In this document: in pieces, positions 36,701 through 56,614 of the stretch
How the letters are laid out: each line of letters starts with the position of its first letter
Position numbering within the stretch: position 1 is the first letter of the stretch
Origin: Lentisphaerae bacterium GWF2_45_14
Lineage (GTDB): Bacteria > Verrucomicrobiota > Lentisphaeria > Victivallales > GWF2-45-14
Length of the DNA: 64,000 bases
Assembly (NCBI GenBank): GCA_001804785.1
Contig: MHBG01000072.1
Span: 53,002-117,001 of the forward strand
Reading direction: 5' to 3'
Notes under the pieces: generated by a model
What the model was told of the DNA's origin: nothing
Databases searched by the model: none
Seen by the model: only the letters and a program-made list of their open reading frames with translations
Program-made: the position numbers and the translations under genes

Positions 36701-37720
36701 ATGCTTAGTTCAAGGCGTATAAAAGAAAATGTAACCCTTTCTGACGTGGCGATGCTTGCCGATGTTTCAGTTTCCGCGGTTTCCAAGGCGCTGCTGGGCG
36801 GCGGTGGTAGGACGACTAAGGTTAGCGAGAAGACTGCTGCAAAAATAAGGGCTGCCGCTGCCAGGCTGGGCTACAGTCCGAATTCCGCGGCGCGTCAGTT
36901 AAAGACGGGAAAGAGCAGAATGATTGGTGCTCTCATTCATGCGACTGCACCGATGGTTTTTTATGATCTTTTTGCGAGGGTACAGAAAAGCCTTGCCCAG
37001 ATGGGATATTGTTTTGTTGTTGCACAGTCCGAGGGGAATTCTGAACTTCTGGAGCGCAATCTCAATGAATTCCGTTCAAGAAATGCCGACGTCATAATAA
37101 GCGCGTTTCACGAATACCCCGGACAGGGGCGTTTGAGGGAAATATATTCCATGTTCGACAATGTCCTTTACATCGGTAAGCCGGAACTTGATAATGCTTC
37201 TTATGTCGAAGCCGATATAAAAAACGGAATTGTCCAGCTAGTGGACTATCTTGTCGCTAAAGGTGCAAAACGTATTGCTATTGACATTACCGACCGTTTT
37301 TACAGGGGAGTAAAGGAACGTATTGCCGGATATACCGAAGGCCTTGCGAAGAACAATATTTCATTTGATGAAAAGATGATGATGGAATATGATGGAGACC
37401 TCAATTCCGTTTCCTCAGTGATTGAAAAAATCCAGACGCTCAAGCCGGATGCAATAATAGCCAACAATGATCTAAGGGCACTTCGAATCATCAAAAATAT
37501 GAAGTCATTGAATATAAACGTTCCGGATGATGTAAGAGTGACGGGCTTTGACAATATGGAGTTTGCTGCCTCCGTCAGTCCTTCCCTTACAACCATGGAT
37601 TTGCGAAACGACAAGCTTGCAGACAATATTATTGAGATGATTAAAAAGTTTCTTTCCGAAGGGCAGTTTCCTGAATGTGCAATTATAAAACCTGAACTTA
37701 TAACTGGAGAATCAGCATGA
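36701..37720 (+). CDS. LacI-family transcriptional regulator
   Basis: 339 aa. N-terminal HTH TLSDVAMLADVSVSAVSKAL...SEKTAAKIRAAAARLGYSPNSAARQL, then a periplasmic-binding-fold domain. Confidence 0.88.
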   Translation: MLSSRRIKENVTLSDVAMLADVSVSAVSKALLGGGGRTTKVSEKTAAKIRAAAARLGYSPNSAARQLKTGKSRMIGALIHATAPMVFYDLFARVQKSLAQMGYCFVVAQSEGNSELLERNLNEFRSRNADVIISAFHEYPGQGRLREIYSMFDNVLYIGKPELDNASYVEADIKNGIVQLVDYLVAKGAKRIAIDITDRFYRGVKERIAGYTEGLAKNNISFDEKMMMEYDGDLNSVSSVIEKIQTLKPDAIIANNDLRALRIIKNMKSLNINVPDDVRVTGFDNMEFAASVSPSLTTMDLRNDKLADNIIEMIKKFLSEGQFPECAIIKPELITGESA

Positions 37721-38439
37721 AATTCAGAGTAAAATGTTTTACTCTTATCGAGTTGCTTTTGGTTATTACAATAATAGCAATCCTTGCTTCAGTCCTCCTC
37801 CCGGCCCTTTCAAAGGCCAGGGATAAAAGTAAGCAGATTTGCTGTATAGGCAATTTAAAAAACTGGACAACCGCCGAACAGATGTATTTAGGTGATTTCA
37901 ACGCCTGCTTTTCTCCGGTGAGGGATAGGCAATACGCCACTGAAAAATTATGGTTTGACAGTATTGCCGGCTATATAGCATTGGAGGATAATGACAATCC
38001 GGGATATTTGCGCAACAGAGAAAGTAAAGATCATCGCTACATTCACCGCTGTCCGTCAAAAAGGGATTATCCGACAGCATGGGTTCAGCCTGATTATGGA
38101 GTAAATGCCTGCCTGGGGCCGTATTACAACGCGGACGGGACTCTTAATCTTACGCCAGTTGCCATTTCTTCTTCGCGGGTTCTTAATCCCGCTAAAACAA
38201 TGCTTTATATAGACTGTCTGGAAGGTTCTTCCGGCCTTCTTCCTGCATGGTATTCAACGAATCCCTTCAGTTCCAATCCAACATGTTTTACTGCCTATAG
38301 ACATGGAAACGGCGCGAATGTCGCATTTGTGGATGGAAATATAAAATGGATGAAAGCTCCGTCCTATGATATCGGACTGGACATAGCAATTGATAAATAT
38401 AAGTATAAATGGAGCTATTTATGGGACGACCGGCCATAG
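37717..38439 (+). CDS. Pseudopilin-like protein: prepilin-type N-terminal methylation-domain helix plus DUF1559-like C-terminus with HX9DG
   Basis: MKFRVKCFTLIELLLVITIIAILASVLLPALSKAR... and, near the C-terminus, YRHGNGANVAFVDGNIKW (H-x9-DG). ATGA overlap with the lacI stop. Confidence 0.85.
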   Translation: MKFRVKCFTLIELLLVITIIAILASVLLPALSKARDKSKQICCIGNLKNWTTAEQMYLGDFNACFSPVRDRQYATEKLWFDSIAGYIALEDNDNPGYLRNRESKDHRYIHRCPSKRDYPTAWVQPDYGVNACLGPYYNADGTLNLTPVAISSSRVLNPAKTMLYIDCLEGSSGLLPAWYSTNPFSSNPTCFTAYRHGNGANVAFVDGNIKWMKAPSYDIGLDIAIDKYKYKWSYLWDDRP

Positions 38440-38468
38440 TGATTAAACAAAAATGGGAGATATATACA

Positions 38469-40634
38469 ATGAAAAAAGTTATGAAGATGGCTGTGCTTTT
38501 GGGTATAGTGTTGCTGCAGGCGTGTTATCCAGCAGCAAAAAACTGCGTTGTTAAAGAGGAACCCGATAAAAAGTCCATGGATCTGTGGAACTTTACGGGA
38601 ATGAACTGGAGCCTGTGGAACCGCAATACAAGGGAACAGATACTGAGCGATTCCGAGATGGAAAAACGTGCTGATTATCTTAAAGGACTTGGCGTCAACA
38701 CCGTCTTTATCAACGGACTGCATTTCCGTTTATCTTTCCTTGACAGGAATAAGCGGACATTGGAACAGCTAAAAAGAGTTACAGCCATTTGTCATGCCAG
38801 GGGGATGAAGGTCATAGAGCACCTTGACCTAACAATCCCGTTATACCTTGGGACATCTGATATGCTGAAACATCCGGAATGGCTTCAGATTGACGCACGT
38901 TACGGATCAACCGTTGCTAGATGGTATTGTTTCAATAATCCCGACTTCCAAAAGTGGAGTATCAATTATCTTAAAGATCTGCTCAGAAAAACGGATGTCG
39001 ACGGTTTCAGCCTTGATGAAGTGGGGTACTCGATAAGCAGGATAAAAGAGGAGATTTTTTGCGGATGCGGGTACTGCCGGAAGAAGTTGAAGGAGGATAC
39101 GAGGGTTCTATTATCTGAGAATTCAAACTCTCTGTTTTGGAACAATTATGATGATTCCGCGTGGCGTAGGTACGTAAAGTGGCGCATTACTTCCAAAAGG
39201 GACTACATGATAAAAGTTTCAGATGAACTGCGGAAAATCAGGCCCGATATCTTTTTTACCGGATACAACACTAATTTTGCGAACGTCTATGCGCGGGATC
39301 ATGGCGGCTGCATGTGGGAAGATTCTAAAGTCCCCAATATGTTTACAGGAATCGAAATATGGGTAAGGCTTTCAACTACCGCGTCTTTTCCCTTTATAAT
39401 GGCGGATTTGAAACTGCGCTCAGCGATTGCGGACCACTGGAACCGTCCATCCTGGATAATTGTCACGCCTGAAGATGATGAAACATTCATATTCACATGG
39501 GCAATGACACGAATGGCAAAGCAGCGTCCATGGATAAATAAGACGCTTATTCCTGAAGGACAAATGAAAAAATGTCTGGCTGCACCGCCATTCATGAATG
39601 ATGAAAACTGCAGGATACTGACAGACATCGGGGTCTTGTTTTCTACGCAGGCAAGAGACGCATACAAAGATTCTTCGGCGCACGGCTTTCCTGTAACGGG
39701 TTGGCTGGAGTTCCTGATAATGAATAATATTCAGGCGGATGCGCTGATGGATGATGATTTGAATCCGGAAATCCTGTCGAAGTATCGTCTCCTGATTCTT
39801 CCGAATTCATCAGCTTTAAGTGAAAAACAAATTGCTGCCTTGATTTCATTTATCGAAAAAGGGGGCAGCGTTATATGTTCGCTGGAAACAGGCGGCCTCA
39901 ATGAAAATGGCGAATCGCGTGGCAGTAATTTATTTTTAAATCATTACGGGTTGAAGAATATTAAGATGAACAAAGGCGGGATAAAGCTTTTCCCATCACC
40001 ATGGTATGACGAGAAGGATTTCAGCGTGACACTGAATGACCGTTTTGCCGTTCCCGAGATAGACGGGAAGGATTTTAAAGTGCTGGCGGAACTTGAATCC
40101 CAAGGTAAACGCTATCCCGGAATAATGATTAAAAAGATAGGGAAAGGCAATCTCCTCTATAGTGGAGTCGAGCTTGGCAACTTGTATTTTATGAATGAAA
40201 TTCTGAAAGGCGGAAAAATCCCTGTTTGGCATGGCGAAAAGTATGCCCCCTTCCTGATGAAAATATTGACGACGGCTTATGACGGGCGCTTTTTATCTGC
40301 TCCGGTAAAGGTGCCCGATGGACTTATATACTATATATATAAAGACAGTTCGAATGGTTCTCTTATAATCCAGACACTTAACACAGCAGGTAGAAAAAAT
40401 CTGTTTCAGGGAGATGGCCCTCTCAAGGAAAAGATAACATACCCGGCGAATGGAGGCATGGTTGTCGATATCCTGTATCCTGGAAGTGCAAGGCCGTCCG
40501 CAACCGTCGTTCAGGCGGACGGAAACGGGCGGACAGTCGAGTGCAAGAGACTTGATTCTGAATATATACGGCTGGACGTTCCGGGAGAAATATTGAAAAC
40601 ATATTCAATAATAAGAATTGATAAGGGAGAATGA
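38469..40634 (+). CDS. Lipoprotein, putative GH42-like glycoside hydrolase (TIM barrel with Cys cluster plus a class-I-amidotransferase-like middle domain)
   Basis: Start moved to ATG 38469 (RBS GGGAGA). Signal plus lipobox MKKVMKMAVLLGIVLLQAC. WYCFNNPDF...DGFSLDEVGY...FCGCGYCRKK is reminiscent of the GH42 Zn-cysteine cluster. LLILPNSSALSEKQIAALISFIEKGGSVI resembles the GH42 central domain. The family call is tentative. Confidence 0.5.
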   Translation: MKKVMKMAVLLGIVLLQACYPAAKNCVVKEEPDKKSMDLWNFTGMNWSLWNRNTREQILSDSEMEKRADYLKGLGVNTVFINGLHFRLSFLDRNKRTLEQLKRVTAICHARGMKVIEHLDLTIPLYLGTSDMLKHPEWLQIDARYGSTVARWYCFNNPDFQKWSINYLKDLLRKTDVDGFSLDEVGYSISRIKEEIFCGCGYCRKKLKEDTRVLLSENSNSLFWNNYDDSAWRRYVKWRITSKRDYMIKVSDELRKIRPDIFFTGYNTNFANVYARDHGGCMWEDSKVPNMFTGIEIWVRLSTTASFPFIMADLKLRSAIADHWNRPSWIIVTPEDDETFIFTWAMTRMAKQRPWINKTLIPEGQMKKCLAAPPFMNDENCRILTDIGVLFSTQARDAYKDSSAHGFPVTGWLEFLIMNNIQADALMDDDLNPEILSKYRLLILPNSSALSEKQIAALISFIEKGGSVICSLETGGLNENGESRGSNLFLNHYGLKNIKMNKGGIKLFPSPWYDEKDFSVTLNDRFAVPEIDGKDFKVLAELESQGKRYPGIMIKKIGKGNLLYSGVELGNLYFMNEILKGGKIPVWHGEKYAPFLMKILTTAYDGRFLSAPVKVPDGLIYYIYKDSSNGSLIIQTLNTAGRKNLFQGDGPLKEKITYPANGGMVVDILYPGSARPSATVVQADGNGRTVECKRLDSEYIRLDVPGEILKTYSIIRIDKGE

Positions 40635-40639
40635 CAATC

Positions 40640-41926
40640 ATGACAAAATACATCTTATCCGCAGTTTTGGTTTCTTTCACAATATTACTTTGCCAAGGGG
40701 GCGAAGAAAATGGATTCCGCACCAATATCAGTCCGGAATTAAGCGTATATTGGAATTCTGAAATATTTATAAAAAGTGACTCTTTTTCAAGCGCTGCTTT
40801 TGATAAGTGTAAAATCGGAAAAGAATTACTTTCTTCATGGGAAACCATATTCAATGTATATGGAGAATATCCTGAATTCCGCTTTTTCAAAGAGGTCGCC
40901 TGCCGCAAAGATGAAGTCGAATTAAACCTGTGGTGCAGAGCAGAGCCCAAGGAGCCGGGCCCGAAGGGATTTACAACTTATACATTTACTATTCCCGTCT
41001 TTTTTCTCAGGGGATGCCGCTATCGTGCTGTTTCGCATATGCCTTATGCGGCTGCGCCCCATTTTACTGAAGGAATATTTTCAGGAGAAGAAAAATCTGA
41101 TTTTAGATTGTTTAAGCCGGGGCTTTATCTGGAAATCTTCAAAGGAAAACAAAAAATTGCAATTGACCTTCAGCCGTGCGGTTCTACGGAGGAACAAGGA
41201 TACGGAAACGGTTCTCGTAATTACTGGTATATGTATAGAGATGGAGAAAACTATAAGCTGGTTAATGGCGTACAGTATTGGCGGATAGGTGGATCGGATC
41301 ATTTTAAAGTCATCTTACGATCTGGAGATAATACAGATTACTATGACATACATCCTTTTTATGTCTCAAGTGAATATTTCCCTTATAAAATAGTCCATGG
41401 ATTTGATTTCGGCGGGAAAAAGGATAAGGGCGCAGCGTCATTTATGGAGCCATGCGGCCTTGATGAATTTGATTCTAAGAAAGGATTTGGATGGCTTGGC
41501 AACGGGGATAAGAATCTGCTTCTTGTTTATGAAAACGAGTCAAATTCACCTAGGGGAACGGCAATCGAGGGGAATGGCGAATCTGTTTTTCGCCTGGATG
41601 CCCGTGCCGGTTTATATCTTTTGAATGTTCAGAGTGGCAGCTTTAAAAAGGATTTAAAAGGATTCAACATATCCATAAATGAGAAAACATCCGTATTTCC
41701 TTCGACAATGCGTGGCGAATTCCTGTTAAAAACCATTCCCGTATTTGTCAAAGAAAATGGACTCGATGTCAAGTTTCAGGGACCGGCATGGCGATTGACG
41801 GCACTTTCTCTTCAGGCCGTAATATTGACCTATGAGGATTTTATGATATCCCGTTCATGGTATCTTGTTCCCGCGTCAGTCCCGCCATGCGCGAAGTTCG
41901 AAAATCTTGAGGAATCTGGTAAATAG
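40640..41926 (+). CDS. Secreted/lipoprotein-like hypothetical protein
   Basis: About 428 aa. The N-terminus MTKYILSAVLVSFTILLCQGG is signal-like. No recognisable catalytic motif. ATG 40640 has better RBS spacing (AAGGGAGA) than 40631. Confidence 0.5.
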   Translation: MTKYILSAVLVSFTILLCQGGEENGFRTNISPELSVYWNSEIFIKSDSFSSAAFDKCKIGKELLSSWETIFNVYGEYPEFRFFKEVACRKDEVELNLWCRAEPKEPGPKGFTTYTFTIPVFFLRGCRYRAVSHMPYAAAPHFTEGIFSGEEKSDFRLFKPGLYLEIFKGKQKIAIDLQPCGSTEEQGYGNGSRNYWYMYRDGENYKLVNGVQYWRIGGSDHFKVILRSGDNTDYYDIHPFYVSSEYFPYKIVHGFDFGGKKDKGAASFMEPCGLDEFDSKKGFGWLGNGDKNLLLVYENESNSPRGTAIEGNGESVFRLDARAGLYLLNVQSGSFKKDLKGFNISINEKTSVFPSTMRGEFLLKTIPVFVKENGLDVKFQGPAWRLTALSLQAVILTYEDFMISRSWYLVPASVPPCAKFENLEESGK

Positions 41927-41929
41927 CCG

Positions 41930-42133: not shown

Positions 42134-42213
42134 GTGAATTTTATCGGATTTTTGAAAAGGGCCGCGCCAGCGTAAAACATGATGGCGTCTGGGAAAAAGC
42201 GAAGCGATTTGCA

Positions 42214-43512: not shown

Positions 43513-43570
43513 ACTAAAATTTATGCAACAGTGCTTGATTCCTAATTCCCTAATGGGCTAAACTACAGAC

Positions 43571-43770: not shown

Positions 43771-43799
43771 TTGACAGAGGAAGTATTTTGATGTAGAAT
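43771..43799 (+). promoter_or_regulatory. Sigma70-type promoter (TTGACA-N17-TAGAAT) of the second LacI locus
   Basis: TTGACA at 43771..43776, 17-nt spacer, TAGAAT at 43794..43799, 30 nt upstream of ATG 43829. Confidence 0.5.
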
Positions 43800-43828: not shown

Positions 43829-44842
43829 ATGGCTCCTACGATAAAAAATGTCGCTAAAAAAGCCGGGGTGTCTGAAACTACCGTCTCTCTTGCCTTCAGG
43901 GAAAAATCGCGGATCAGCAAGAAGACAAGGGATAAAGTGATAAATGCTGCCTCAGAAATCGGCTATATGCCTAATCTTGCGGCAAAGAATTTGCGGAGCG
44001 GGGCACCGAAGACCATAGGGTTTATAGTAAATGACATTACCAATCCATTTTATAGTCTCATGATGCGTGAGGCTGAAGATATAGCGCTCCAGCATGGTTA
44101 CAGCGTAATCTTCGCCGGCAGCAATTGGTCCGAAGAAAAGGAAAGGCATTTGTTTGAGCAGATGGTGCAGATGCGGGTCAATGGATTAATCGTGTGTCTA
44201 TGTGAAAAATCCGCGGAATCTGTCGGAATGCTTGATCGTTTCAAGATTCCCTATATCGCCGTTGATTCATATCCTGACTGGTACAAGGGTGCGTATGTCG
44301 CTAACGATTTCAGACAGGCGGGTACGATGGCTGCTATGCATCTTTTTCAGCAAGGTTGCCGCAATCCGGCATATTTTACTGCCGGAAAAGAGATGAAAGA
44401 ACTCAGTGCGTTTATGAAAATGGAACGCTATTTCGCTGAATATTTCAGAATTAATAAAGTGGACTTCGGAAGAAGCAATGTCATTGAAGCAGGCCTGAGT
44501 ATCCGTAACGGACATGAGGCTTTTGATAGAGAGTTCCAAAGAGGGAAAAGATTTGACGGGATTTTCTGCGTAAATGATTTATGCGCGATGGGCGTAATGG
44601 AAGCCGCATCCGAATCAGGCGTGGTTCCAGGCAGAGACCTTGCCATAGTGGGCATTGACGATACCGAAGTATCCGCTTTTTCCCGTGTTTCACTGAGCTC
44701 CATCCGACAGCCTTACAGCCAGATTGCCAAGATTGCAATGGAATCATTGCTAGAATCTGCCGATTCAGGGGTCTGCCCGGACATCAGGGTAGAACTGCCG
44801 GCGGAGTTTATTGTCAGAAATTCATCAAAACTTTTTAAATAA
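43829..44842 (+). CDS. LacI-family transcriptional regulator
   Basis: 337 aa. HTH TIKNVAKKAGVSETTVSLAF...SKKTRDKVINAASEIGYMPNLAAKNLR. Confidence 0.88.
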   Translation: MAPTIKNVAKKAGVSETTVSLAFREKSRISKKTRDKVINAASEIGYMPNLAAKNLRSGAPKTIGFIVNDITNPFYSLMMREAEDIALQHGYSVIFAGSNWSEEKERHLFEQMVQMRVNGLIVCLCEKSAESVGMLDRFKIPYIAVDSYPDWYKGAYVANDFRQAGTMAAMHLFQQGCRNPAYFTAGKEMKELSAFMKMERYFAEYFRINKVDFGRSNVIEAGLSIRNGHEAFDREFQRGKRFDGIFCVNDLCAMGVMEAASESGVVPGRDLAIVGIDDTEVSAFSRVSLSSIRQPYSQIAKIAMESLLESADSGVCPDIRVELPAEFIVRNSSKLFK

Positions 44843-44856
44843 AAGGATAGTTTATC

Positions 44857-46011
44857 ATGTCTCAAAACTGTGTTATTTCGACAGAGGAATTCAAAGAGCG
44901 TATTGTCCGGACCAGAAAATCCATGCAGTCGGCAGGCCTTGAACTGCTCCTGGTTTTTTCGACAGAGAGCGAACCTGCGGGGGTAAGATATTTTTCCGAC
45001 TACTGGCCGAGCTTTGAAAGTTCCGGAGTCCTCATCCCCCTGGAGGGCGAGCCCCTTCTGCTTATCGGCCCGGAGAGCATGACATTCGCGAAAGGGCGCT
45101 CAAAAATAGAAAATATTATAAGGATGAAGGACTTCCGCGAATCGTCAATGCCGGACTATCCGGGAAACAAACTGATTGAGTGGAAAGAACTTCTGAGCCG
45201 CTTTTCGGCAAAAAAGATCGGGATAGCAGGGTGGCAGATGATTCCACAGTCCATCTATAAAAATATCGCAGCCGTACTCGGTGAAGAAAATATGTCGGAC
45301 GCCGATGAAGTCGTAAGAAAAGTTACTATGAAAAAGAGTCCGGCGGAATTGAATTGCCTGAGAGAGGCCGCGAAAATCTCAGAATTGGGATTCAAGGCCA
45401 TTCTTGAAAATATCAGGCCTGGCATGACTGAAGCCCAGCTTGCAGGAATCGCCGCAGGAGCGATGTTGGCTAATGGCGCGGAAGCAACTGGTTACCCCAT
45501 ATGGTGTTGCAGCGGACCAAACTCCACGCAGGCAATCAGCCGTCCGACGCTTCGCAAAGTGCAGGAAGGCGAAATAATCCATTTCAGCATTGGGGCAAAA
45601 GTCTCCGGTTACAGTGCCAGTATCGGCCGACCAGTCGTTCTCGGCCAATGTCCTCCTGATACTCTCAAGTTTATGCAGACCGGACTGGATGCCATGAATA
45701 TGACTATTGATCTCATGCGCGGCGGAACCCCTGCTTCCGATGTGGCGAAAAAAGTTCACGGATATATTGCCGGCAAGGGTTACGGCCACACAATTCTATA
45801 TGGCCCGGCGCATGGCTGCGGGCAGATGGAATGCGAATTCCCGTTCCTTGAGACATCATCGACTTTTACTCTTGAAGAGAATATGGTTTTCATGGTCGAT
45901 GTGTTTCTCGCGGAAGAAAATATGGGTTTTCGCTGGGAGGACGGCGTTATAATAAGGAATGGAAAAGCCGAAGAACTCTCAAGTTATAAAAGGGAGATAA
46001 ATATAATATGA
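44857..46011 (+). CDS. M24-fold hydrolase (creatinase/prolidase-like) lacking the canonical metal-binding aspartates
   Basis: 384 aa. Creatinase_N-like N-domain plus pita-bread domain: KSPAELNCLREAAKISE..., GEIIHFSIGAKVSGYSASIGRP (canonical GDxxxxDxGxxxxGYxSDxTRT), HGCGQMECEFP and RWEDGVII. Confidence 0.75.
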   Translation: MSQNCVISTEEFKERIVRTRKSMQSAGLELLLVFSTESEPAGVRYFSDYWPSFESSGVLIPLEGEPLLLIGPESMTFAKGRSKIENIIRMKDFRESSMPDYPGNKLIEWKELLSRFSAKKIGIAGWQMIPQSIYKNIAAVLGEENMSDADEVVRKVTMKKSPAELNCLREAAKISELGFKAILENIRPGMTEAQLAGIAAGAMLANGAEATGYPIWCCSGPNSTQAISRPTLRKVQEGEIIHFSIGAKVSGYSASIGRPVVLGQCPPDTLKFMQTGLDAMNMTIDLMRGGTPASDVAKKVHGYIAGKGYGHTILYGPAHGCGQMECEFPFLETSSTFTLEENMVFMVDVFLAEENMGFRWEDGVIIRNGKAEELSSYKREINII

Positions 46012-46796
46012 TTATAGATATACATGGTCATATCGGCAATATAAATTTAGCCCCTTTTTGGCAGGCGGACGCCGCAAGACTTGAGGAATATCTGGAAAAG
46101 GCCGGAGTTGACAGACTTTGCGTATCATCCGCAAAATCAATAATGTATGACGTAAGAGAAGGGAACAAAGATCTTGCCGAGGCACTGGATGAAAGTGAAA
46201 GGCTACTTGGATATGTAACCGTAAACCCGCTTTTTCCCGAAAGTCTCGAAGATCTCAAATATCTTGAAAATCCTAAATTCATAGGAGTAAAAGTCCATCC
46301 GGACTATCACGGATATGATGTCGGCTCCAGAGATACTCAGAAGTTTATGGACAAAGTAGCGTCTAAAACCAAACTCATGCTTTTTCATGTATCATGCATG
46401 CCAGGAACAGGATTCGCCGATGCCGAAACCGTGGCAAGGTTTGCGTCTGAACATCCGGACAATGATTTTGTAATGGCACATCTGGCCGGCATTTTCCAGA
46501 ACGGTCTTTATCCGTATTTTCCCAATTTAAAAGGGCTTGAAATAGTCAGCAAATTTGCCTGTGAAAATATTTATGTTGACACAGCCCATTACCTTATGTA
46601 TGTCTATCCAGGCGTCATGGAAAAGATGGTGGAACTTATTGGGGCAGAGCACATTGTTCTCGGTACCGACTGCCCACTTCAAGGGCCTCTGCAGATGCGT
46701 TTTGCTATCGAAACAGTTAAGGCACTGGATATTCCGGAAGCTGATAAAGAAAAAATCCTCTGCGGAAATGCGCAAAAACTATTGAGGTTTTCATGA
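46008..46796 (+). CDS. Amidohydrolase_2-family metal-dependent hydrolase
   Basis: 262 aa. MIIDIHGHIG (DxHxH), VKVHPDYHG, FVMAHLAG, YVDTAH and GTDCP. ATGA overlap with the upstream gene. Confidence 0.75.
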   Translation: MIIDIHGHIGNINLAPFWQADAARLEEYLEKAGVDRLCVSSAKSIMYDVREGNKDLAEALDESERLLGYVTVNPLFPESLEDLKYLENPKFIGVKVHPDYHGYDVGSRDTQKFMDKVASKTKLMLFHVSCMPGTGFADAETVARFASEHPDNDFVMAHLAGIFQNGLYPYFPNLKGLEIVSKFACENIYVDTAHYLMYVYPGVMEKMVELIGAEHIVLGTDCPLQGPLQMRFAIETVKALDIPEADKEKILCGNAQKLLRFS

Positions 46797-47167: not shown

Positions 47168-47192
47168 ATCAAAAATAAAAGGACTTGAAAAA

Positions 47193-48017
47193 ATGGCAAA
47201 GTTGAAAGACAAATTCTGGCTCTGGGGACAAAACGTCGGTATTCATCATGCGTGTGGAAACGGTCAGTACAATTTGCCCGGAGTGAACCAGATGGACTCC
47301 GCGGAAGGCTGCAAGTTTTTTGGGATTCCGAACTGTTGCAGGGTGGCGATGGGCAGCGGGCCATTTCCGCCGTTTGACGCGGAAGCGGAGAAGCTTAAAG
47401 ACTGCAAGCAGGTTGTATGGTCGGCGGTCGGAGCAGGAGGCCTTACCCAGCATAATGACGACAAGAGCGACTTGGATGAAGTTCTGCGTCAGGCTGCGAT
47501 ACACCCTAATGTCACGGGTGCCGTCCTTGATGATTTTTTCAAGTCGGTGGAAGGGTTCAAGACCAGCGGCACAGTCGCCAGGCATACGGTAGACAGTATC
47601 GCTTCCATGCGTAAAAAACTGCATAATTTCCCCAAGAGGAAACTCGATTTGTGGATGGTATGGTATTCCTATCAGTTGGATTATGACGTCGCCGATTATA
47701 TCTCTTTATGCGATGTGGTTACCTTGTGGACGTGGAAAGGTTCAGATCTCACAATTCTTGACGAAAACATCAGGAAATTTATAGCAAAAACCCCTCAAAA
47801 AAGGCGTCTTGCGGGTTGCTATATGTGGAACTATGGCGAGCAAAAACCTCTGTCGAATAAAGAAATGCAGGATCAGCTGGATTGTTATTATAGCTGGATC
47901 AAAAAGGGAGATATCGAAGGAATTGTGTTGTGTTCCAACTGTATCGCCGATATCGATTTGGAAGCCGTAGATATCACGCAACGATGGCTAGAGAAGGTTG
48001 GGGAAGAAGAAGTATAG
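47193..48017 (+). CDS. Uncharacterised cytoplasmic protein, tandem paralog A (274 aa)
   Basis: MAKLKDKFWLWGQN...CCRVAMGSGPFPPFD...[12 protein letters not shown]...[16 protein letters not shown]...[17 protein letters not shown]... No signal peptide and no family I recognise. RBS AAAGGA. Confidence 0.7.
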   Translation: MAKLKDKFWLWGQNVGIHHACGNGQYNLPGVNQMDSAEGCKFFGIPNCCRVAMGSGPFPPFDAEAEKLKDCKQVVWSAVGAGGLTQHNDDKSDLDEVLRQAAIHPNVTGAVLDDFFKSVEGFKTSGTVARHTVDSIASMRKKLHNFPKRKLDLWMVWYSYQLDYDVADYISLCDVVTLWTWKGSDLTILDENIRKFIAKTPQKRRLAGCYMWNYGEQKPLSNKEMQDQLDCYYSWIKKGDIEGIVLCSNCIADIDLEAVDITQRWLEKVGEEEV

Positions 48018-48122
48018 ATTTAATATAGATGCAGCTTGATTTGGCGGGCTCGACACGACTCAAGCCGACATGGCCTGTTGCAGGTACATGGGGTATAACG
48101 AATAAAAAAAGGAAAGTAGAAA

Positions 48123-48947
48123 ATGACAAAATTAAAAGACAACTTCTGGCTCTGGGGACAAAATCCGGGAAGCCACCATGTGAATTCAATGGGCGACAAT
48201 TCCTACAAACTTCCAGGTAAAAACTTAATGGGGTCAAAGGAAGGATGCGAATGCCTGGGAATAGATAAATGCTGCAGAGTGGCGATGGCGGCAGGCCCCT
48301 TCCCTCCTTTTGACGAAGAGGCTGAAAAGATCAAGGATTTAAAGGAAGTTGTATGGTCGGCAATCGGCGCGGGTAGCGTTAAGCATCATAATGACGACAA
48401 AAGCGATCTTGATGAAGTTCTCAAGATGGCGCAAATTTATCCGAACGTATCAGGGGCTGTTCTCGACGACTTTTTCTCCTCGCTTGAGTTTGCGGACAAG
48501 AAGCTTGCCCGACATTCGATTGAAAGCATAAAAAACATGCGCGACCGCCTACATGGATTCAGCAAGCGAAAACTTGATCTATGGATGGTGTGGTATACTT
48601 ATCAGCTCGACTACAAGGTCAGAGATTATATTGACTTGTGCGACGTGATAACCATGTGGACATGGAAAGGATGCGACCTGCCGAATCTTGACAAAAACAT
48701 GGAAAAATTCTTGGCGCAAGCTCCTGAAAAAAGACGCTTAGCCGGATGCTATATGTGGAACTACGGCGAACAAAAGCCATTGACGGTCGATGACATGAAA
48801 TTTCAGTGCGAAAAGTATTACAACTGGATACAAAAAGGCTGGATAGAGGGGATTGTTTTTTGTTCAAATTGTATTTGCGATATCGGTCTTGACACTGTAG
48901 AGTGGACAAGGAACTGGATTGCTGAAATAGGCGATGAGAAAGTATAG
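48123..48947 (+). CDS. Uncharacterised cytoplasmic protein, tandem paralog B (274 aa)
   Basis: Same length as paralog A, about 60-65% identical by eye and collinear throughout ([14 protein letters not shown]...[15 protein letters not shown]...[12 protein letters not shown]...[16 protein letters not shown]...[17 protein letters not shown]). Confidence 0.7.
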
Positions 48948-48973
48948 CAAGGAAAAGAGAGGCGGGCCGGAGC

Positions 48974-49705
48974 ATGGTTATTAAAAGGCGAATGTACTTC
49001 ACGCTCATTGAACTGCTCGTAGTAATAGCTATAATCGCAATTCTGGCGAGCATGCTCCTGCCTGCCCTGAGGAGAGCCAAGGTGGCCGCAAATAGAACTG
49101 TCTGCATGAACAGTATGAAACAAATAGGTCTTGGCCTGAGAAATTATGTGACCGACTATAATGAGTGGTGGCCTTACCGCGAACACGCAACTGTACAGCC
49201 GCTGTTTTACTGGGCTCTTCAGCTTACGGAAGGCGGATATCTGAAACAAGGAGTAAATGATTACGATTTTTCAGTGAAATGCCCTACCCGCAAGAGGATA
49301 AACTCAAATGTATGGATAAACTCATGCACAGATTATGTGATAAATGCCGCGTGTTCAGACAAGGGATGGGGGAATATGGGAGGCGGCTTGAGTGAAGGCA
49401 GAAATGGTATGCTTGGTTGCAAAGACAGCGTAATAAACAGTCCCGCGAAATTCGGAATACTTGGAGAGCGCGACGATGTTTACGCTTCGTCTATGACTTA
49501 CGTTAGAGATTACAGAGACTTTTGTACTGACAGCATAGCCCCGACAGCTGGTAGTACAGGAATCAGCTTGGATTCTCACGGTGAAACATCCAACTACCTT
49601 TTTGCCGATAACCACGCCGAGCCTATTACATGGAAAAATTTAAATATGGGCCGCCTTACGATACGAGACGGTCTCTATGACAGTTATACCATACTAAATC
49701 GCTGA
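48974..49705 (+). CDS. Pseudopilin-like protein (prepilin-type N-terminal helix, DUF1559-like, HX9DN variant)
   Basis: [36 protein letters not shown]... The C-terminal [21 protein letters not shown] is H-x9-DN. Confidence 0.85.
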
Positions 49706-49779
49706 CCGGCTAAAGTGCCGAAAGTCCGATTACAAAAACTTTTTAAGACGTCAAAACAGATTAAGAAAAGGAGTCATTA

Positions 49780-52700
49780 GTGAGAACAGGGAAAACAATC
49801 AGCCGAACAATGAGATTTACAATGGCCATTTTGGCGGCGCTGGCCCTGACCGGATGCGGCACAGAAAAAAAACAATGCGCCGACACGGGCACCTCACTTT
49901 CAAACAAAGAATATTATAGACTGATAGCGGAAAGCAAAAAGGGCAATAGCTCAGAAGAAAACGTTATCGTCAACGGCGGTTTTGAAAATTATGACGCTGC
50001 GCTCGGCAAATTCGAAGGATGGAACGATTTGAAAAAACAAGTATCTTCCTCCGGTGATGCAGCAAGCGGGGCAAGGTCTGCAAAAATTGAACTTTCAGAA
50101 AAACCGAAATGGGGACCTACATTTGTCAGAGGGCAAACAAGCTATTCTGTAGACCTTAAACCCGGAAGCTATTTGTTCAGCTGCGTTTGCAAAGGCAAAA
50201 ATCTTACAGACCTGAAAATCAACTTGCTCCTTGCCGACGGCAAAATCGCAAAAGGGACACAAGTAATCAGTCTCCGAGAAAAAGACATGAAGGATTGGAA
50301 GCCATTTCAAGCACTTTTGAAAACGCCGGAGGATACCGGAGTAAAGGGGTTAGCCCTGGAATTTCTGGGAGAGCGTGGTGCAGAGTGCGAGGCATTTATA
50401 GACGACGTAAAATTAGTCAGAAAAACCGGTTCATCCAACGTAATGTTCAATTCAAGTTTTGAGATTTGCACCGTTCCCGAATGTCCCGACCGCTGGACCT
50501 CAGAGTCGGCCCAATTACTCTATCCGGAAAAATACAATACCTCCATAGTGTCAAACACAGCTAAGACTGGCTCAAACTCCATAAAGATGAGCTGGCACGG
50601 ACCTTATGATAAAAACCTTGCCATGTATAGCCGACTCATGTCGGGATTTTGCTCAGGGGTAGATGAGGGAGCCCAATACACTGTCTCGCTATGGATGAAA
50701 ACCGACAATCCTCCTGTAAAAATGAACCTGTGGATGAATTATGTGAACCGCAAAACATTTACAATCGACTCAAAGGAATGGAAAGAATACACATTTAGCT
50801 CCACATGGCGCCAGCCTTGGCGCAATACGGTTTTTGCATTTATCCTGCTTTTCTTTGAAGGCAAAGACGGAGAAATGATTGACGCCAATGTTTGGGTTGA
50901 CGACGTTATGGCGGAGCCGGGAGAAAAGGCGACCAGCTGGAAGCCGGCTCTGGAGGATGAATTGTACATGGACAAAATGTTTCCGAAGCCAGGGACTGAG
51001 GTCGAAAAATCTGTTCAAATAGCGAATCGGCCTGAACTTGCCACCGAAAAGGTGAAGTCCGGAAGCATTGCGACAGACGGAAAACTGGATGAAAAAGTAT
51101 GGTCCGGTAAAAATACAGCGGAATGTATTACTCCCTTCAAAAACACGGCGGTCAGCAATCCGACTTCCTGCAGAATAGCTTACGATGACGACTATCTTTA
51201 TGTTGCTCTGGACGCCAAACGCAAAACGCCCAAGGGTCCGGCAAAGGATTCAGACAGCCCCTTTTCCGGAGACTGGATTGAGTTTTTCCTTGACCCGAAC
51301 AGTTCCGACTGCGCGTATTATCAATTCGTAATCAACAGCAAAGGGAATATTTTCACGACCCAATGCCGCTTTGATCCCATCGCCTTTGAAACTCCCGGTT
51401 CAAGTGGTTATACTCTCATCTCTTGGAAGCCAAAATTCGACTATGCCGTAAGTGAAGGCAAGAACGGATGGCAGGCGGAATTGAAGATTCCATTGAATCT
51501 TTTCGGTTCCGAACTGCGTGAAGGCAAGCCTTTCAACGTTAACTTTTATAGAGTCATATCAGAGACAGGGGAGGCAAACGCCTGGAGCAAGACCCAAAAG
51601 GGATTTCACGATATGCCCCTTTTTGGAAGACTCAACGGCTTTAAATCTGAAAAAGAGTTTGCCTCGCTGGACTTTTCGGATATTACGTTTCTACCATCGG
51701 CTGACGGAAAAACGGTTGTCGGAAAATTGTCTCTAAAAAACAAGCTCGTGGTAAATTCACTGACAGCCGAGCTCGTAGAAAATAACAATAAAGCCGATCC
51801 GCTGAAAGTTTATGAAGAAAATGGAATATACAATATAGCCATCCCTTTCTCTCCGCGCGAGGCCCTAAACAAGACCATCCGGCTTAGCGCTAAGACAAAA
51901 GGAGAAAGTGTTCAAGCCTTTGCCTCCGTAAATATTTCCAGATTACTGGTTTTCGGCGTAAATTCGGCTGTTTTTCAAGGCGAGAAAAATTTCCCGTGCC
52001 TGGTTAGCGTAAATCTTCCTGAAAAAGAGAGAAAACAAGCTGTTTTAAAATTTACCGTTGCTGAACGCAAAAGCGGAAAGAAAGTTATTGAAACGGAATT
52101 GCCCATAAAATCTGCCCGGGACGTTTACAGTGTTCCCTTCTCAAAACTGCCTGACGGATGGCACAATTTGACTGCGTCTTTGCAGATGCACGGAAAGACA
52201 ATTGCCGAAGAGACAAGATGGACCTATCTGGGAGAACGTAAAAAGGACAACGTGCGTGTGTGTGTGGAGAACATGCGGATTGAACGCAACGGAAAGCCTT
52301 TTTTTATGCTGGGAACCTGGAATATATTGAAAGATCCCAAAGTCAATTTCAAACAGCTTTCCAAATATAAAGATTTCGGAGTCAATACGATAACTATTTC
52401 TTTGCTGAATTATCGCTCCAAGTACGAGGACTTTGATTTCGACTTAATATTTGATGAAGCGGAAAAGGCCGGACTTTTAGTGATACCTGATTTCACCTAT
52501 CTTATGGTATACGGCGAAAAAATGCACAAATATTCCAGGGATAAGATATTTGACATTATCAAATCTTTTGTCAAAAAATACAAGGACCGCCCCAGTCTTC
52601 TTATGTATCACGGGATGGATGAATGGGTTGCCGGCCGCCAGAGAAGCCTGCCGTTCTGCTCAGACGAAGACCTTGAAAAAGTTTACTGGCTTGTGAGAGA

Positions 52701-53370
52701 AAACGACCCCTATCATCCTTTCTTCTTCAACTTGGGTCCACGGACATGGGCATGGGGCGACTTGAGGTTCACCGACATTTTCAGCTATGATTGTTATATC
52801 GCGTCACCAGCCCCCTATGAGACCAATATGGAGCGCTTCGATTACTACGCCAGTGAAGGAGAGAAGTGCGCCGTTGACAATCTGAAACCTATGTTCAACG
52901 TAATTCAGTTCAGTTGTGGAACGGAAATATTTCAGACACGCCTGATGCGCTACAACGAACAACGCTGCCTGGCTTATGTCACCATTCTCAACGGCAGCAA
53001 GGGAATCCTATTCTATACAGGGCTCAGCTGGTGCGAGCCGAAAAATAAACAGCTTCCCTCCATATCTGAAGAGCTTAACCAGCTGGCGCCCGTCCTACTC
53101 GGTTACGAAAGGGAGGAAAGAATTGAAACAGGAACAAAGGATGTACTGGCGAAGTATTTACTTTTCAAGGGAGCTTTCTGGATTATATGCGCTAACGCAG
53201 GAGCCAAGGAAGTCCATGGAGTGGAGATGGATCTGAATGGAATCCTGCAGGGGAGCCATAAGGCGAAAGCGGTTTTCAATGGCTGTGAGAAAAGTATTGA
53301 AAACGGAAAACTGAAGCTCGACTTTGAGCCTTATGAATGTTTCGTCTACAAGGTCGACGTACAATATTAG
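49780..53370 (+). CDS. 1196-aa multidomain lipoprotein: two CBM4/9-type modules, a CBM9-like module, and a C-terminal TIM-barrel-like putative glycoside hydrolase region
   Basis: GTG start 6 nt after AAGGAG. Lipobox ILAALALTGC. NGGFE-type CBM starts (VIVNGGFENYD..., NVMFNSSFEICT...). CBM9-like block KLDEKVWSGKN...AYDDDYLYVALDA...FFLDPN...YYQFVINSKGN...AELKIPL. C-terminal NGKPFFMLGTWN...GVNTITISL... Confidence 0.7.
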   Translation: MRTGKTISRTMRFTMAILAALALTGCGTEKKQCADTGTSLSNKEYYRLIAESKKGNSSEENVIVNGGFENYDAALGKFEGWNDLKKQVSSSGDAASGARSAKIELSEKPKWGPTFVRGQTSYSVDLKPGSYLFSCVCKGKNLTDLKINLLLADGKIAKGTQVISLREKDMKDWKPFQALLKTPEDTGVKGLALEFLGERGAECEAFIDDVKLVRKTGSSNVMFNSSFEICTVPECPDRWTSESAQLLYPEKYNTSIVSNTAKTGSNSIKMSWHGPYDKNLAMYSRLMSGFCSGVDEGAQYTVSLWMKTDNPPVKMNLWMNYVNRKTFTIDSKEWKEYTFSSTWRQPWRNTVFAFILLFFEGKDGEMIDANVWVDDVMAEPGEKATSWKPALEDELYMDKMFPKPGTEVEKSVQIANRPELATEKVKSGSIATDGKLDEKVWSGKNTAECITPFKNTAVSNPTSCRIAYDDDYLYVALDAKRKTPKGPAKDSDSPFSGDWIEFFLDPNSSDCAYYQFVINSKGNIFTTQCRFDPIAFETPGSSGYTLISWKPKFDYAVSEGKNGWQAELKIPLNLFGSELREGKPFNVNFYRVISETGEANAWSKTQKGFHDMPLFGRLNGFKSEKEFASLDFSDITFLPSADGKTVVGKLSLKNKLVVNSLTAELVENNNKADPLKVYEENGIYNIAIPFSPREALNKTIRLSAKTKGESVQAFASVNISRLLVFGVNSAVFQGEKNFPCLVSVNLPEKERKQAVLKFTVAERKSGKKVIETELPIKSARDVYSVPFSKLPDGWHNLTASLQMHGKTIAEETRWTYLGERKKDNVRVCVENMRIERNGKPFFMLGTWNILKDPKVNFKQLSKYKDFGVNTITISLLNYRSKYEDFDFDLIFDEAEKAGLLVIPDFTYLMVYGEKMHKYSRDKIFDIIKSFVKKYKDRPSLLMYHGMDEWVAGRQRSLPFCSDEDLEKVYWLVRENDPYHPFFFNLGPRTWAWGDLRFTDIFSYDCYIASPAPYETNMERFDYYASEGEKCAVDNLKPMFNVIQFSCGTEIFQTRLMRYNEQRCLAYVTILNGSKGILFYTGLSWCEPKNKQLPSISEELNQLAPVLLGYEREERIETGTKDVLAKYLLFKGAFWIICANAGAKEVHGVEMDLNGILQGSHKAKAVFNGCEKSIENGKLKLDFEPYECFVYKVDVQY

Positions 53371-53420
53371 CAAATCGGCGCTGAGAAGATATAATAGTAA
53401 AAGGAAAGGAAGACTGGAGC

Positions 53421-54155
53421 ATGGCTACTGAAAAACGAATACGCTTCACGCTCATTGAATTGCTTGTGGTAATTTCGATTATCGCAATTCTGGCGAGCAT
53501 GCTCCTCCCTGCCCTGAGGAATGCGAGAGAAATGGGCAAAACCACTGTTTGCGTGAACAATTTCAAGCAAGTAGGTATGGCATTATACTCGTATGCCGGA
53601 GATTCCAACTCTTTTCTGCCAATCACTGAAGTAGGAAATTCCGGCATGACTGAAAATGGATGGGGATCCACGTTGATGAACACCTGGGCGCAAAAACTAG
53701 CAAAGGCCGGAGCTATAAAAACGTATGCAATTGGCGAAAGCAGCATACTCGTATGCCCTTCTTTATTCCCGTTTGGAAAGTTCTATAGTCATTACTACAT
53801 TTACGGTTATCGCTATCCTGCTACGGAGCACTGGAGACTAGGCAACGAATATAACATTAACCCGTGGTATCCCAAACGCAGCCCGACAAAAACGGCCCTT
53901 GCCGGAGATTCCGGCTGTAAATACACGGCTACGTCGGTTTTCGGACAGGCATATTACTACATGCCGTCCTGCTCTTCAGGGGCTGAGCCTATGAATGGTT
54001 TTATTCATACCCGGCATCAGAACAAAGCGGCTTTTATTTTTGCCGACGGACATGCTGAGACCGTGGGTTTTAAGCAATTCGTTCCTTTCACAGACCCCGA
54101 CTCGCTTCTTATAAACCACTACTATGACCAGAATGGGAATTGGATAGAATTATAG
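53421..54155 (+). CDS. Pseudopilin-like protein (prepilin-type N-terminal helix, DUF1559-like, HX9DG)
   Basis: [36 protein letters not shown]... The C-terminal [20 protein letters not shown] is H-x9-DG. Confidence 0.85.
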
Positions 54156-54223
54156 TGATTATCGAAGTCCGCACGAAAGCGAAGCTTGTAAGATAAAAAT
54201 ATTAAATAATAGAAGGAGTTAGA

Positions 54224-56614
54224 ATGTTGAACAAGACGATTATGTGCATTGCGTTTCTGGCGGCGGCATTAATACTGGACTCCTGCCAAACCCCTGCTTG
54301 CCACGGAAAGACGACGGCGAAAAAGCAACTGACGCTTACATCAAACGGCAAAACCGACTATCGGCTGGTTATTGCGGAATCTTGTCCCGAGCCGGAAAGA
54401 CTGGCTGCCACGCAGCTTCATGAATATCTCAAGAAACTAACCGGTGTCGATTTCCCCATCCTCAAAGAGAACCAGGTTCAGCCCGGCGGAAAAAACATCT
54501 TTATCGGCAATACGGCGGCGGCACGCGGCGCCGGTTATGATTCGACAACCTTCGACAAGGAAGAATGGCTGATAAAAACACTTCCTGACGGCGATGTAAT
54601 AATTGCCGGAGGACAGCCGAGGGGAACTCTTTACGGCACATTCGAGTTCCTTGAAAAGTTCGGCGATGTCGTATGGACTGACGAATATTCCGAATATGTC
54701 CCCATGGAAAAAGAATTTTCCATTCCGATTATCGACATTCGGGATAAACCCTGTTTCTGGCTGAGATCATTTGTTGGCGGCAGACCCGTTGACATGGAGA
54801 AATTCAAAATGTTTCACCTTCGGAATAAATATAATTACGCCTACATGGCGCCTGAGACGGGATCTAACGAAAAATACGGATCGCCCGGCATGTGCCACAC
54901 TTTTTACGCTTACTCTAAAGATTGGCCGCGGGATAAACCCGAGTATTTCTCACTGAATGACGACGGCCAGCGACTGCGGGCAAATGACGGCGGAGGCCCC
55001 GGTCAAATCTGCTTGATGAACAAGGACGTCAGAGATTTGATTTACAAGCGGCTCCTCAAGTATATCAAAACTGACCGCTCGGCATGCACCAAGTCCGGCG
55101 TGCCTTTTCCGCGCCTGTATGTGATAGAACAGAACGACAACATGCATTTCTGCAAATGTCCCGAATGCAAAGCTCTAGCCGAAAAGGAAGGCTCGTTTTC
55201 GGGCCCCATGCTAGATTTTATAAACGATCTCGCGGACAGAATCAAGAAAGATTATCCGGACATCTATCTTTCCTGCATCGCCTACACAAAACTGGCCGTA
55301 AGACCGCCAAAAACCATAAGGCCGCGCGACAATGTTTTGATTCGTGTTTGCGATTTGGGCGCGGAGTTTGGCGAGGGCGAGTCTGAATCGCTCCGGAAAG
55401 TTAGCGATCCTCAAAACGTGAACTTCAAGGAAATAGTCGAGTCATGGGGTAAAATCTCAAAACACATGGGTATATGGGAATACTGGGTGTTATACAATAA
55501 ACCGTTTGCCGTTCCGTACTCCGTTATCGGCAACCTTGAGGATGATTTTCGCTTCTACAAGAAAAACCATGTTGAGACAATGCTCGTTGAAAGCGAATAC
55601 ACTGAACAGACCAGTTTTTTCGCGCTTAAGCGTTGGCTGGGACTCAAACTGATGCAGAATCCGGATCTTTCCGTAAAACCGCTTGTCGAGAAATTCATGA
55701 AAGCTTACTACGGCAAGGCCGCCGGGACTATGAGCGACTACCTGGACTACCTGGAAAAACGGCAGAATGAGAACCCGGAGGAACGATACGGTAAAATGTC
55801 ACCCTATCAGTATAAGTACCTTGATCTTGATTTTTTCGTGACTGCCAACAGTTTACTCGACAAGGCGGGAGTCCAGGCTCGCGACGACAAGGATGCATCA
55901 ATCCATATCCGGCATGAGCGGGTCCCCGTGGATTCGGCGATGCTCTCTCTCTGGAAAAAACTTGAAAAAGATTCCAACGCGAAACTTCCCTTTTCCAGGA
56001 AAGAAATATTGGCTCGCTACGAGACAAATGGACTGGAGCAGATAGCGCGATTTGTCCCGAACAGCGGTCTGGGCAAAGACAAGTTATGCATCTCGAAGGA
56101 CGAATTCAACAATCGGATAACTGCACTTAAACTTGATCTCCAGCCTCCGGAACATATCAAAAATCCGGCGATGCTGGAAGATATTTTTTGGGCAGAAATG
56201 AGAGAATTACCACATTTAGGCTCAACGATAACTGATGATAAGGATGCATGCGGCGGCAAGGCACTGAAGCTCGTCAATGTTAAAAAAATCGAAAACTTTT
56301 TCGGCGGCCCACTAGAGGTTTACGTATACAACACAACACTTAAGAAGCGAGTTCTCAGCGCCAATATACAGCGAAGCGAAATCATCGCAGACGGAAAATA
56401 TCACTGGTACGATCTCGGCAAGGTATCAATAACCCCCGGATCGATACTGATGCTCCACAGAACATCACATCTGCAGACACCTCTGGATAAGGCTGTCAAT
56501 CCAAACCCTGAATGGAATCTACAGCTTTCGCTAAAGTTTAGCGGCCCAGCTTACATTACGGGATCGAAGGAAGAAGACGCAATCTGGCTGGACCGGATAG
56601 TGTTGACCAAATAG
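54224..56614 (+). CDS. DUF4838-like lipoprotein (glycan-active, GH20/GH67-N-like architecture)
   Basis: 796 aa. Signal plus Cys (AAALILDSC). KTDYRLVIAESCPEPERLAATQLHEYLKKLTGVDFPI is the typical DUF4838 N-terminal block. The C-terminal part is beta-rich. Confidence 0.65.
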   Translation: MLNKTIMCIAFLAAALILDSCQTPACHGKTTAKKQLTLTSNGKTDYRLVIAESCPEPERLAATQLHEYLKKLTGVDFPILKENQVQPGGKNIFIGNTAAARGAGYDSTTFDKEEWLIKTLPDGDVIIAGGQPRGTLYGTFEFLEKFGDVVWTDEYSEYVPMEKEFSIPIIDIRDKPCFWLRSFVGGRPVDMEKFKMFHLRNKYNYAYMAPETGSNEKYGSPGMCHTFYAYSKDWPRDKPEYFSLNDDGQRLRANDGGGPGQICLMNKDVRDLIYKRLLKYIKTDRSACTKSGVPFPRLYVIEQNDNMHFCKCPECKALAEKEGSFSGPMLDFINDLADRIKKDYPDIYLSCIAYTKLAVRPPKTIRPRDNVLIRVCDLGAEFGEGESESLRKVSDPQNVNFKEIVESWGKISKHMGIWEYWVLYNKPFAVPYSVIGNLEDDFRFYKKNHVETMLVESEYTEQTSFFALKRWLGLKLMQNPDLSVKPLVEKFMKAYYGKAAGTMSDYLDYLEKRQNENPEERYGKMSPYQYKYLDLDFFVTANSLLDKAGVQARDDKDASIHIRHERVPVDSAMLSLWKKLEKDSNAKLPFSRKEILARYETNGLEQIARFVPNSGLGKDKLCISKDEFNNRITALKLDLQPPEHIKNPAMLEDIFWAEMRELPHLGSTITDDKDACGGKALKLVNVKKIENFFGGPLEVYVYNTTLKKRVLSANIQRSEIIADGKYHWYDLGKVSITPGSILMLHRTSHLQTPLDKAVNPNPEWNLQLSLKFSGPAYITGSKEEDAIWLDRIVLTK

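Follow-up and report, generated by a model that had tools for sequence, protein, structure and literature searches.

In Klebsiella, the lipoprotein pullulanase PulA is exported by a type II secretion system (T2SS) with the endopilins PulG-K, under maltose/MalT control. In the Bacteroidota, polysaccharide-utilisation loci (PULs) form self-contained, regulator-headed cassettes that encode surface or exported glycan enzymes and are repeated many times per genome. A third combination is known from Sulfolobus, where proteins with pilin-type N-termini, encoded in sugar-utilisation loci, make up the Bas-assembled bindosome (PMC4471445). Bacteria of the Planctomycetota-Verrucomicrobiota-Chlamydiota (PVC) group encode the DUF1559 (PF07596, 'SBP_bac_10') or H-X9-DG (TIGR04294) family, with an N-terminal pilin motif and a C-terminal H-X9-DG motif. 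Copy numbers of 68-74 have been cited for single Planctomycetota genomes; in the literature, the function of the family is given as unknown, or the family is listed as putatively 'solute-binding'. Here, we describe three pilin-like genes of this kind in Lentisphaerae bacterium GWF2_45_14, from groundwater, each of which stands directly ahead of a gene for a very large exported glycan-active protein. The window that we analysed is a 64 kb stretch of GWF2_45_14 within the 136.8 kb metagenome contig ERZ909592/SRR1658473.

The locus shares traits with all four systems. As in the Klebsiella pullulanase secreton, the genes for pilin-type subunits are associated and sugar-co-regulated with that of a large lipoprotein that hydrolyses glycans and has to reach the cell surface. 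Unlike in the secreton, each enzyme operon here has one stand-alone pilin-like gene with no machine genes beside it, and the pilin-like proteins have hundreds of paralogues, lack Gly at position -1 (directly before Phe+1), score far below the cut-off of the GspG model and carry a head without a match in the PDB. The window proteins agree with the DUF1559 family of PVC bacteria in both motifs and in size, but belong to a Lentisphaerota subtype of about 240 amino acids (aa), compared with a Planctomycetota median of about 308 aa, that lacks Gly or Ala at -1 and has a different conserved downstream partner. The Sulfolobus bindosome is archaeal, and its heads are true ATP-binding cassette (ABC) solute-binding proteins encoded beside transporters, whereas the heads in the window measure about 200 aa, show no solute-binding fold and have no adjacent transporter. 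The cassettes resemble Bacteroidota PULs in being self-contained and regulator-headed, in encoding exported glycan enzymes and in their repetition within a genome; in place of a TonB-dependent transporter or a SusD-like gene, they hold a pilin-like partner that does not co-diversify with the enzyme. No SusC-like TonB-dependent transporter or SusD-like Pfam family was found among the open reading frames (ORFs) from 34 to 60 kb. The analogy with SusC/D drawn in a sequence-only reading of this DNA lacks a transporter counterpart across the loci.

A six-frame motif scan of the 64 kb window detected exactly three pilin-type N-termini (FTLIELL...), at 37717, 48974 and 53421. The three proteins, P1, P2 and P3, are each encoded ahead of, and on the same strand as, an exported glycan-active protein of 721-1196 aa (E1, E2 and E3). 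The two modules comprise the following genes, the slash marking the boundary before Phe+1.

36701..37720, + strand: LacI-family regulator of module 1 (PF00356 LacI plus Peripla_BP_1/3)
37717..38439, + strand: P1, pilin-like, 240 aa; MKFRVKC/FTLIELL with Cys at -1; H-X9-DG near the C-terminus
38469..40634, + strand: E1, predicted lipoprotein, 721 aa, LLQAC; GHL10-like TIM barrel and GH42M-like domain
43829..44842, + strand: second LacI-family regulator, heading a gene run that ends in P2-E2-P3-E3
48974..49705, + strand: P2, pilin-like, 243 aa; ...RRMY/FTLIELL with Tyr at -1; H-X9-DN variant
49780..53370, + strand: E2, predicted lipoprotein, 1196 aa, LTGC; CBM4_9 and CBM9 modules
53421..54155, + strand: P3, pilin-like, 244 aa; ...KRIR/FTLIELL with Arg at -1; H-X9-DG
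54224..56614, + strand: E3, exported protein, 796 aa; DUF4838 (GH163/GH185-type) catalytic domain and GH67N-like N-terminal domain

The spacing given by the sequence-only reading is confirmed: E1 starts 29 nucleotides (nt) past P1 (the longest E1 ORF runs from 38409), E2 begins 74 nt after P2, and 68 nt separate P3 from E3. In module 1, the LacI stop and the P1 start share 4 nt. E2 begins with a GTG (49780) that is preceded by an AAGGAG ribosome-binding site (region 49763-49782); no such site precedes the ATG at 49810 chosen by public gene callers. A scan of 37-56.9 kb revealed no terminator-like sites in the three pilin-enzyme gaps, and its strongest promoter-like site lies at 43771-43799, ahead of the second LacI gene; over this region, promoter and terminator counts were no different from those in shuffles. 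All three pilin genes have the start context C(T/C)GGAG(A/C)..ATG in common (37705-37719, 48962-48976 and 53409-53423).

In the local background, 4.7% of genes encode a protein of at least 600 aa with a signal peptide; at that rate, all three pilin-like genes would have such a neighbour by chance with a probability of about 1e-4. For a wider comparison, 80 loci were fetched from species-representative genomes by pilin alignment (26 Lentisphaerota, 23 Verrucomicrobiota, 25 Planctomycetota and 6 others). Genes were called with our own ORF caller, and both gene and signal-peptide calls are heuristic; the loci are samples biased to P3-like pilins, their taxon labels come from record titles, and metagenome loci carry no taxonomy. 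The counts for the genes next to the pilin and for the local background are as follows.

Lentisphaerota, gene of at least 600 aa with signal peptide: downstream 13/32, upstream 2/30, background 9/192, p=1.9e-7
Verrucomicrobiota, gene of at least 600 aa with signal peptide: downstream 1/23, upstream 1/26, background 10/211, p=0.69
Planctomycetota, gene of at least 600 aa with signal peptide: downstream 1/29, upstream 3/29, background 8/279, p=0.59
Planctomycetota, lipoprotein below 250 aa: downstream 9/29, upstream 0/29, background 3/279, p=3e-8

In Lentisphaerota, the downstream slot also differs from the upstream slot (p=0.002). The Pfam matches of ten Lentisphaerota partners comprise two GH123-like and two heparinase II/III-like proteins, GH78, DUF4838 plus CBM9, a beta-helix and a CBM-like protein (CBM, carbohydrate-binding module; GH, glycoside hydrolase); two had no match. 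The large-enzyme partner appears in the Lentisphaerota samples only, with 1/23 in Verrucomicrobiota and 1/29 in Planctomycetota, and the label 'PVC-type' given to the arrangement by the sequence-only reading is therefore too broad. In Planctomycetota, the small lipoprotein is a second, lineage-specific partner rule of the DUF1559 family. Examples of these lipoproteins are L009:7031-7423, L031:11048-11470, L073:11088-11507, L074:11209-11667, L053:7707-8258 and L062:7937-8416; some display weak similarity to CarboxypepD_reg, Big_1 or DUF6795.

The same order emerges from the enzyme side. In 80 metagenome loci fetched by DUF4838 alignment, blind to pilins, a pilin-like gene lay in the upstream slot in 15/57 cases and never in the downstream slot (0/41), and it filled 9/324 of the remaining slots (p=3.4e-8); two further cases were found by eye. 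The enrichment of pilin-like genes ahead of exported glycan enzymes, which the sequence-only reading had named as the test, is thus present in both locus samples. Gaps between pilin and enzyme range from -23 to 114 nt, without terminators. In six contexts, publicly called genes annotated with Pfam were consulted, and all six fit the pattern.

L163, a fourth pilin on the window's contig, outside the window: pilin, Kelch/cadherin-like protein, rhamnogalacturonase-like protein
L165: GntR regulator, P3 orthologue (68% identity), DUF4838 protein
L167: GntR regulator, pilin, GH123 protein
L168: pilin, 1871-aa GH2-like protein, DUF4838 protein
L169: pilin, 1498-aa GH42M/ThuA-like protein
L170, a 4.3 Mb contig: LacI regulator, pilin, 982-aa DUF4838 protein

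Regulators are part of the arrangement as well. Among 1590 locus genes, 10 resemble the window LacI or the GntR-PBP regulator of L165, and 9 of these 10 lie directly upstream of a pilin-like gene on the same strand (binomial p=1.4e-7), indicating that the unit consists of regulator, pilin and enzyme or enzymes. In line with the proposed LacI control, the pilin-like genes are linked to sugar-responsive regulators. We conclude with high confidence in the gene-order rule that the three dyads are copies of a conserved, directional Lentisphaerota layout, in which a sugar-responsive LacI/GntR-type regulator is followed by one pilin-like gene and by a single large Sec-exported glycan-degrading enzyme or several of them. 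Full-text literature searches returned no report of a DUF1559 pilin-like gene paired with a downstream enzyme, in line with the earlier impression that the pairing had not been characterised.

The three pilin-like proteins all match the N-terminal methylation motif (PF07963 / TIGR02532), with TIGR02532 scores above the cut-off. Their membership of the DUF1559 family is at the margin of the profiles: P2 and P3 score 22.4 and 21.8 bits against PF07596 (cut-off 23.3), P1 has no match to PF07596, and P1 reaches 16.5 against TIGR04294 (cut-off 19). The H-X9-DG motif itself is found in P1 (HGNGANVAFVDG) and P3, with the H-X9-DN variant in P2, and homologues at 35-39% identity carry PF07596 under the name 'prepilin-type processing-associated H-X9-DG protein'. 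Mutual identity among P1-P3 is only 30-34% and stems mainly from the N-terminal helix. Recombination via the conserved 5' end of the pilin genes was considered and ruled out by DNA alignment, as synonymous differences occur throughout and no long identical stretch is present. The family is very large, with 60,447 clusters at 50% identity matching the DUF1559-family profile at E<=1e-30 and 244,856 at E<=1e-10.

Each protein has Phe1 and the hydrophobic stretch of about 21 residues characteristic of type IV pilins, interrupted by Glu5. Across 105 close homologues, Phe+1, Glu+5, Cys44 and Cys112 are each conserved in 105/105, and the residues of the H...DGH site nearly so (His199 102/105, Asp209 104/105, His211 99/105). 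The AlphaFold2 model of P3 (pLDDT 84, pTM 0.82) adopts a lollipop shape, with a 51-residue helix (11-61) and a beta-rich head, of which the core is conserved and the loops are poorly conserved and modelled with low confidence.

For E1, the description as 'GH42-like' does not hold up well: Pfam matches are limited to the GH42 trimerisation domain PF08532 (27.9 bits) and GHL10 (29.4 bits), with no GH42 catalytic domain. E2, of 1196 aa, contains CBM4_9 and CBM9 modules, and its CBM9 region matches PDB entry 1i82, the sole meaningful match in PDB sequence searches of all three proteins, in which E1 had none. E3 matches DUF4838 (PF16126) with E=3e-65 and 221 bits, which places it with GH163/GH185 at the level of the domain only. 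DUF4838 provides the catalytic domain both in GH163 and in GH185, the latter a family of 6-sulfo-GlcNAcases (PMC10570127), which fits a sulfated-glycan context. A lipobox Cys had been proposed for all three proteins. The lipobox pattern is [LVI][ASTVI][GAS]C after an n-region and an h-region. Under a strict PROSITE-style rule (a heuristic, not SignalP), E1 (LLQAC) and E2 (LTGC) pass, while LDSC of E3 passes a relaxed rule only, because of Asp at -2. At the corresponding site, homologues of E3 carry canonical lipoboxes (LLSAC, ILGC and LCSC). Across loci, the lipobox is not general among the partners.

To compare the histories of the two partners, we considered the identities of all pairs (190) among 20 pilin-DUF4838 dyads. 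Enzyme identity is uncorrelated with pilin-head identity (Spearman 0.03, p=0.73). Individual loci illustrate this in both directions: L083 encodes an E3 orthologue with 73% identity downstream of a pilin whose head is 22% identical to that of P3, and in L165 the head of the P3 orthologue is 66% identical, with an enzyme only 45% identical to E3. In L005, L042, L080 and L168, two or three enzymes lie behind one pilin, so that the ratio is not 1:1, and no pilin-enzyme fusion occurs in 102 pilin ORFs, the mature lengths of which span 200-360 aa. Gene position is hence kept and the particular sequence pairing is not, which argues against an enzyme-specific adaptor. The sequence-only reading had envisaged a functional unit in which the pilin acts as cognate anchor, presenter or adaptor; the directional, conserved unit is supported, the cognate relationship is not.

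The layout can tentatively be explained by a generic, co-induced subunit of a type IV filament that aids enzyme export or display, although for this statement as a whole, mechanism included, we would put the chances somewhat short of even. The pilin-like protein would belong among type IV filament subunits: its alpha-1 helix bears the invariant Phe1 and Glu5, a disulfide would staple its beta head, and the H...DGH site is conserved. It would be induced along with the enzymes and serve them alike, without a dedicated enzyme partner. Most likely, it would be a building block of an inducible endopilus or short pilus in a T2SS-like machine. Such a machine might push co-expressed enzymes to the cell surface or hold them there, comparable to PulG-type pseudopilins and the lipoprotein pullulanase. 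A filament subunit is suggested by the invariance of Glu5 and Phe1, by partners that are exported and sometimes lipidated, and by a filament ATPase in a relative: a gene for a T2SSE-family ATPase of 731 aa (L170:1957-4152) lies 2 kb upstream of the LacI-pilin-DUF4838 module, indicating that type IV filament machinery is present there. The generic role is suggested by the uncorrelated histories of enzyme and pilin and by the several enzymes that may follow one pilin.

A number of observations weigh against the filament explanation. The three window pilins have Cys (P1), Tyr (P2) and Arg (P3) at -1, in place of the Gly of class III signal peptides, and they share the lack of Gly or Ala with about 85% of their Lentisphaerota homologues. 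At this position, 6 of the 105 close homologues have Gly and 10 have Ala, and Gly occurs in 4/37 Lentisphaerota locus genes, compared with Gly or Ala in 31/31 Planctomycetota and 25/27 Verrucomicrobiota genes. Processing by bacterial prepilin peptidase is said to depend absolutely on Gly at -1 (PMC4471445), and unprocessed subunits would not be expected to assemble into filaments. With the GspG model TIGR01710, the three proteins score 28.4, 26.9 and 33.4 bits (cut-off 88.85), and these scores arise from the N-terminal region only. Foldseek searches of the PDB with full-length or head-only AlphaFold2 models returned no significant match of the head under E=0.1, indicating a head fold without a solved relative; the weak matches were type IV pilins (9iuf, 6xxd, 3s0t and 8tj2; E>=0.1, TM<=0.36). 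No secretion-machine genes were found within the window. Furthermore, a generic role alone leaves the retention of hundreds of divergent paralogues unexplained. The absence of Gly/Ala(-1), set against invariant Phe+1 and Glu+5, points to either an unusual prepilin peptidase specificity or no processing. Canonical Gly(-1) does occur in 6/17 pilins of the enzyme-sampled set (16 from directly adjacent dyads in which the N-terminus of the pilin is complete, and that of L111, located two genes ahead of its enzyme), and the loss of Gly is therefore a lineage trait rather than a requirement of the dyad.

If no processing takes place, the pilin-like protein could be an N-in, C-out accessory of the inner membrane, whose periplasmic head aids the folding, lipidation, sorting or stability of the exported partners. 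The scarcity of Gly(-1) in Lentisphaerota, unlike in Planctomycetota and Verrucomicrobiota, speaks for this model, as do leaders that are often just MKK, MKR or MKGKR, the shortest (for example MKK/FTLIELL) having three residues; the invariant Cys pairs imply an extracytoplasmic head. We nevertheless consider it unlikely, since invariant Glu+5 and Phe+1 (105/105) are typical of filament subunits and hard to explain for a plain anchor, and since dyads with canonical Gly(-1) exist. A different function, though again an unlikely one, would be that of a glycan-capture fibre or 'bindosome', in which pilin-like proteins on a short type IV filament or on the cell surface bind polysaccharide or its products through variable head loops and bring substrate to the enzymes, in the manner of the Sulfolobus sugar-binding proteins or of lectin-type minor pilins. 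The sugar-regulated operons, the head with a conserved core and poorly conserved, low-confidence loops, and the huge diversity of paralogues (the 60,447 clusters) agree with such a function. Class III signal peptides on sugar-binding proteins provide a precedent (PMC4471445), and the Pfam name of the family is SBP_bac_10. However, among the DUF4838 dyads, similar heads do not go with similar enzymes, no lectin, CBM or solute-binding fold is recognisable in the head, and the cassettes contain no transporter genes.

The tight, directional and conserved gene order, and the fact that each enzyme in the window has a pilin of its own, would also be expected if each paralogue recognised, anchored or secreted its own neighbouring enzyme. 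The missing co-diversification, with L083 and L165 as counterexamples, the two or three enzymes that may follow one pilin and the lack of fusions leave this cognate role little probability. Least probable by far is adjacency by chance, arising from the high copy number of DUF1559 genes and secreted carbohydrate-active enzymes. Both gene classes are indeed abundant in these genomes, and the loci are samples rather than whole genomes, analysed with a crude ORF caller, but the local-background and upstream-slot controls (p=2e-7, 0.002 and 3e-8) and the agreement of public gene calls in 6/6 contexts leave hardly any room for it.

The remaining genes around the three dyads are listed below.

40631..41926, + strand: exported protein, 431 aa; signal peptide, no Pfam match, 4-nt overlap with the E1 stop
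44857..48947, + strand: intervening genes without signal peptides (M24 peptidase, amidohydrolase_2, ASRT-family protein, two 274-aa paralogues)
56624..60072, - strand: two sulfatases (CxPxR motif, SGSH_C type) and an IclR-type regulator, convergent with E3
56624-58000 and 57997-59358, - strand: the sulfatase genes, with the IclR-type regulator at 59362-60072

Sulfatases had been said to adjoin all the loci. They are found next to the third dyad only, on the opposite strand and with their own IclR-type regulator. Both start directly at the catalytic domain and thus have no signal peptide, and they are probably cytoplasmic. The 431-aa protein probably belongs to the E1 operon. On the other flank of module 1 lies a 793 aa protein with an N-terminal membrane segment (34172-36553); like the 431-aa protein, it falls into no known family, and neither has a homologue within the fetched loci. 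A DDE transposase gene (DDE_5 / DDE_Tnp_1) at 42214-43512 separates the two modules, and a search for terminal inverted repeats around it yielded none that was convincing. In the second LacI-headed run, the ASRT-family (PF07100) protein at 46793-47167 precedes the tandem 274-aa paralogues (47193-48017 and 48123-48947), which are 64% identical and have neither a Pfam family nor a signal peptide. Positions 1-30000 of the window are occupied by housekeeping genes (thiamine, sulfur-amino-acid, MTHFR and ETF genes and a siroheme/haem cluster) without pilin-like genes; they include assimilatory sulfate reduction, with CysN/C-like, two PAPS-reductase-family and sulfite reductase genes.

The DUF1559/H-X9-DG proteins are among the largest paralogue families of PVC bacteria, and the gene-order rule provides this family with co-expression partners, candidate inducers and clear knock-out predictions. 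It also indicates a PUL-like organisation for Lentisphaerota, whose glycan acquisition is poorly understood, and predicts that either the processing enzyme or the way in which the proteins act is out of the ordinary. Going further, Lentisphaerota may have recruited stand-alone pilin-like proteins, matured independently of Gly, as the standard non-enzymatic part of hundreds of regulator-headed glycan cassettes, a proposal that we regard as speculative and more doubtful than the filament explanation itself. If true, type IV filament subunits would take the place of SusC/D in a PUL-like architecture, and their Gly-independent maturation would imply either a prepilin peptidase of new specificity or a new use of pilin-like helices.

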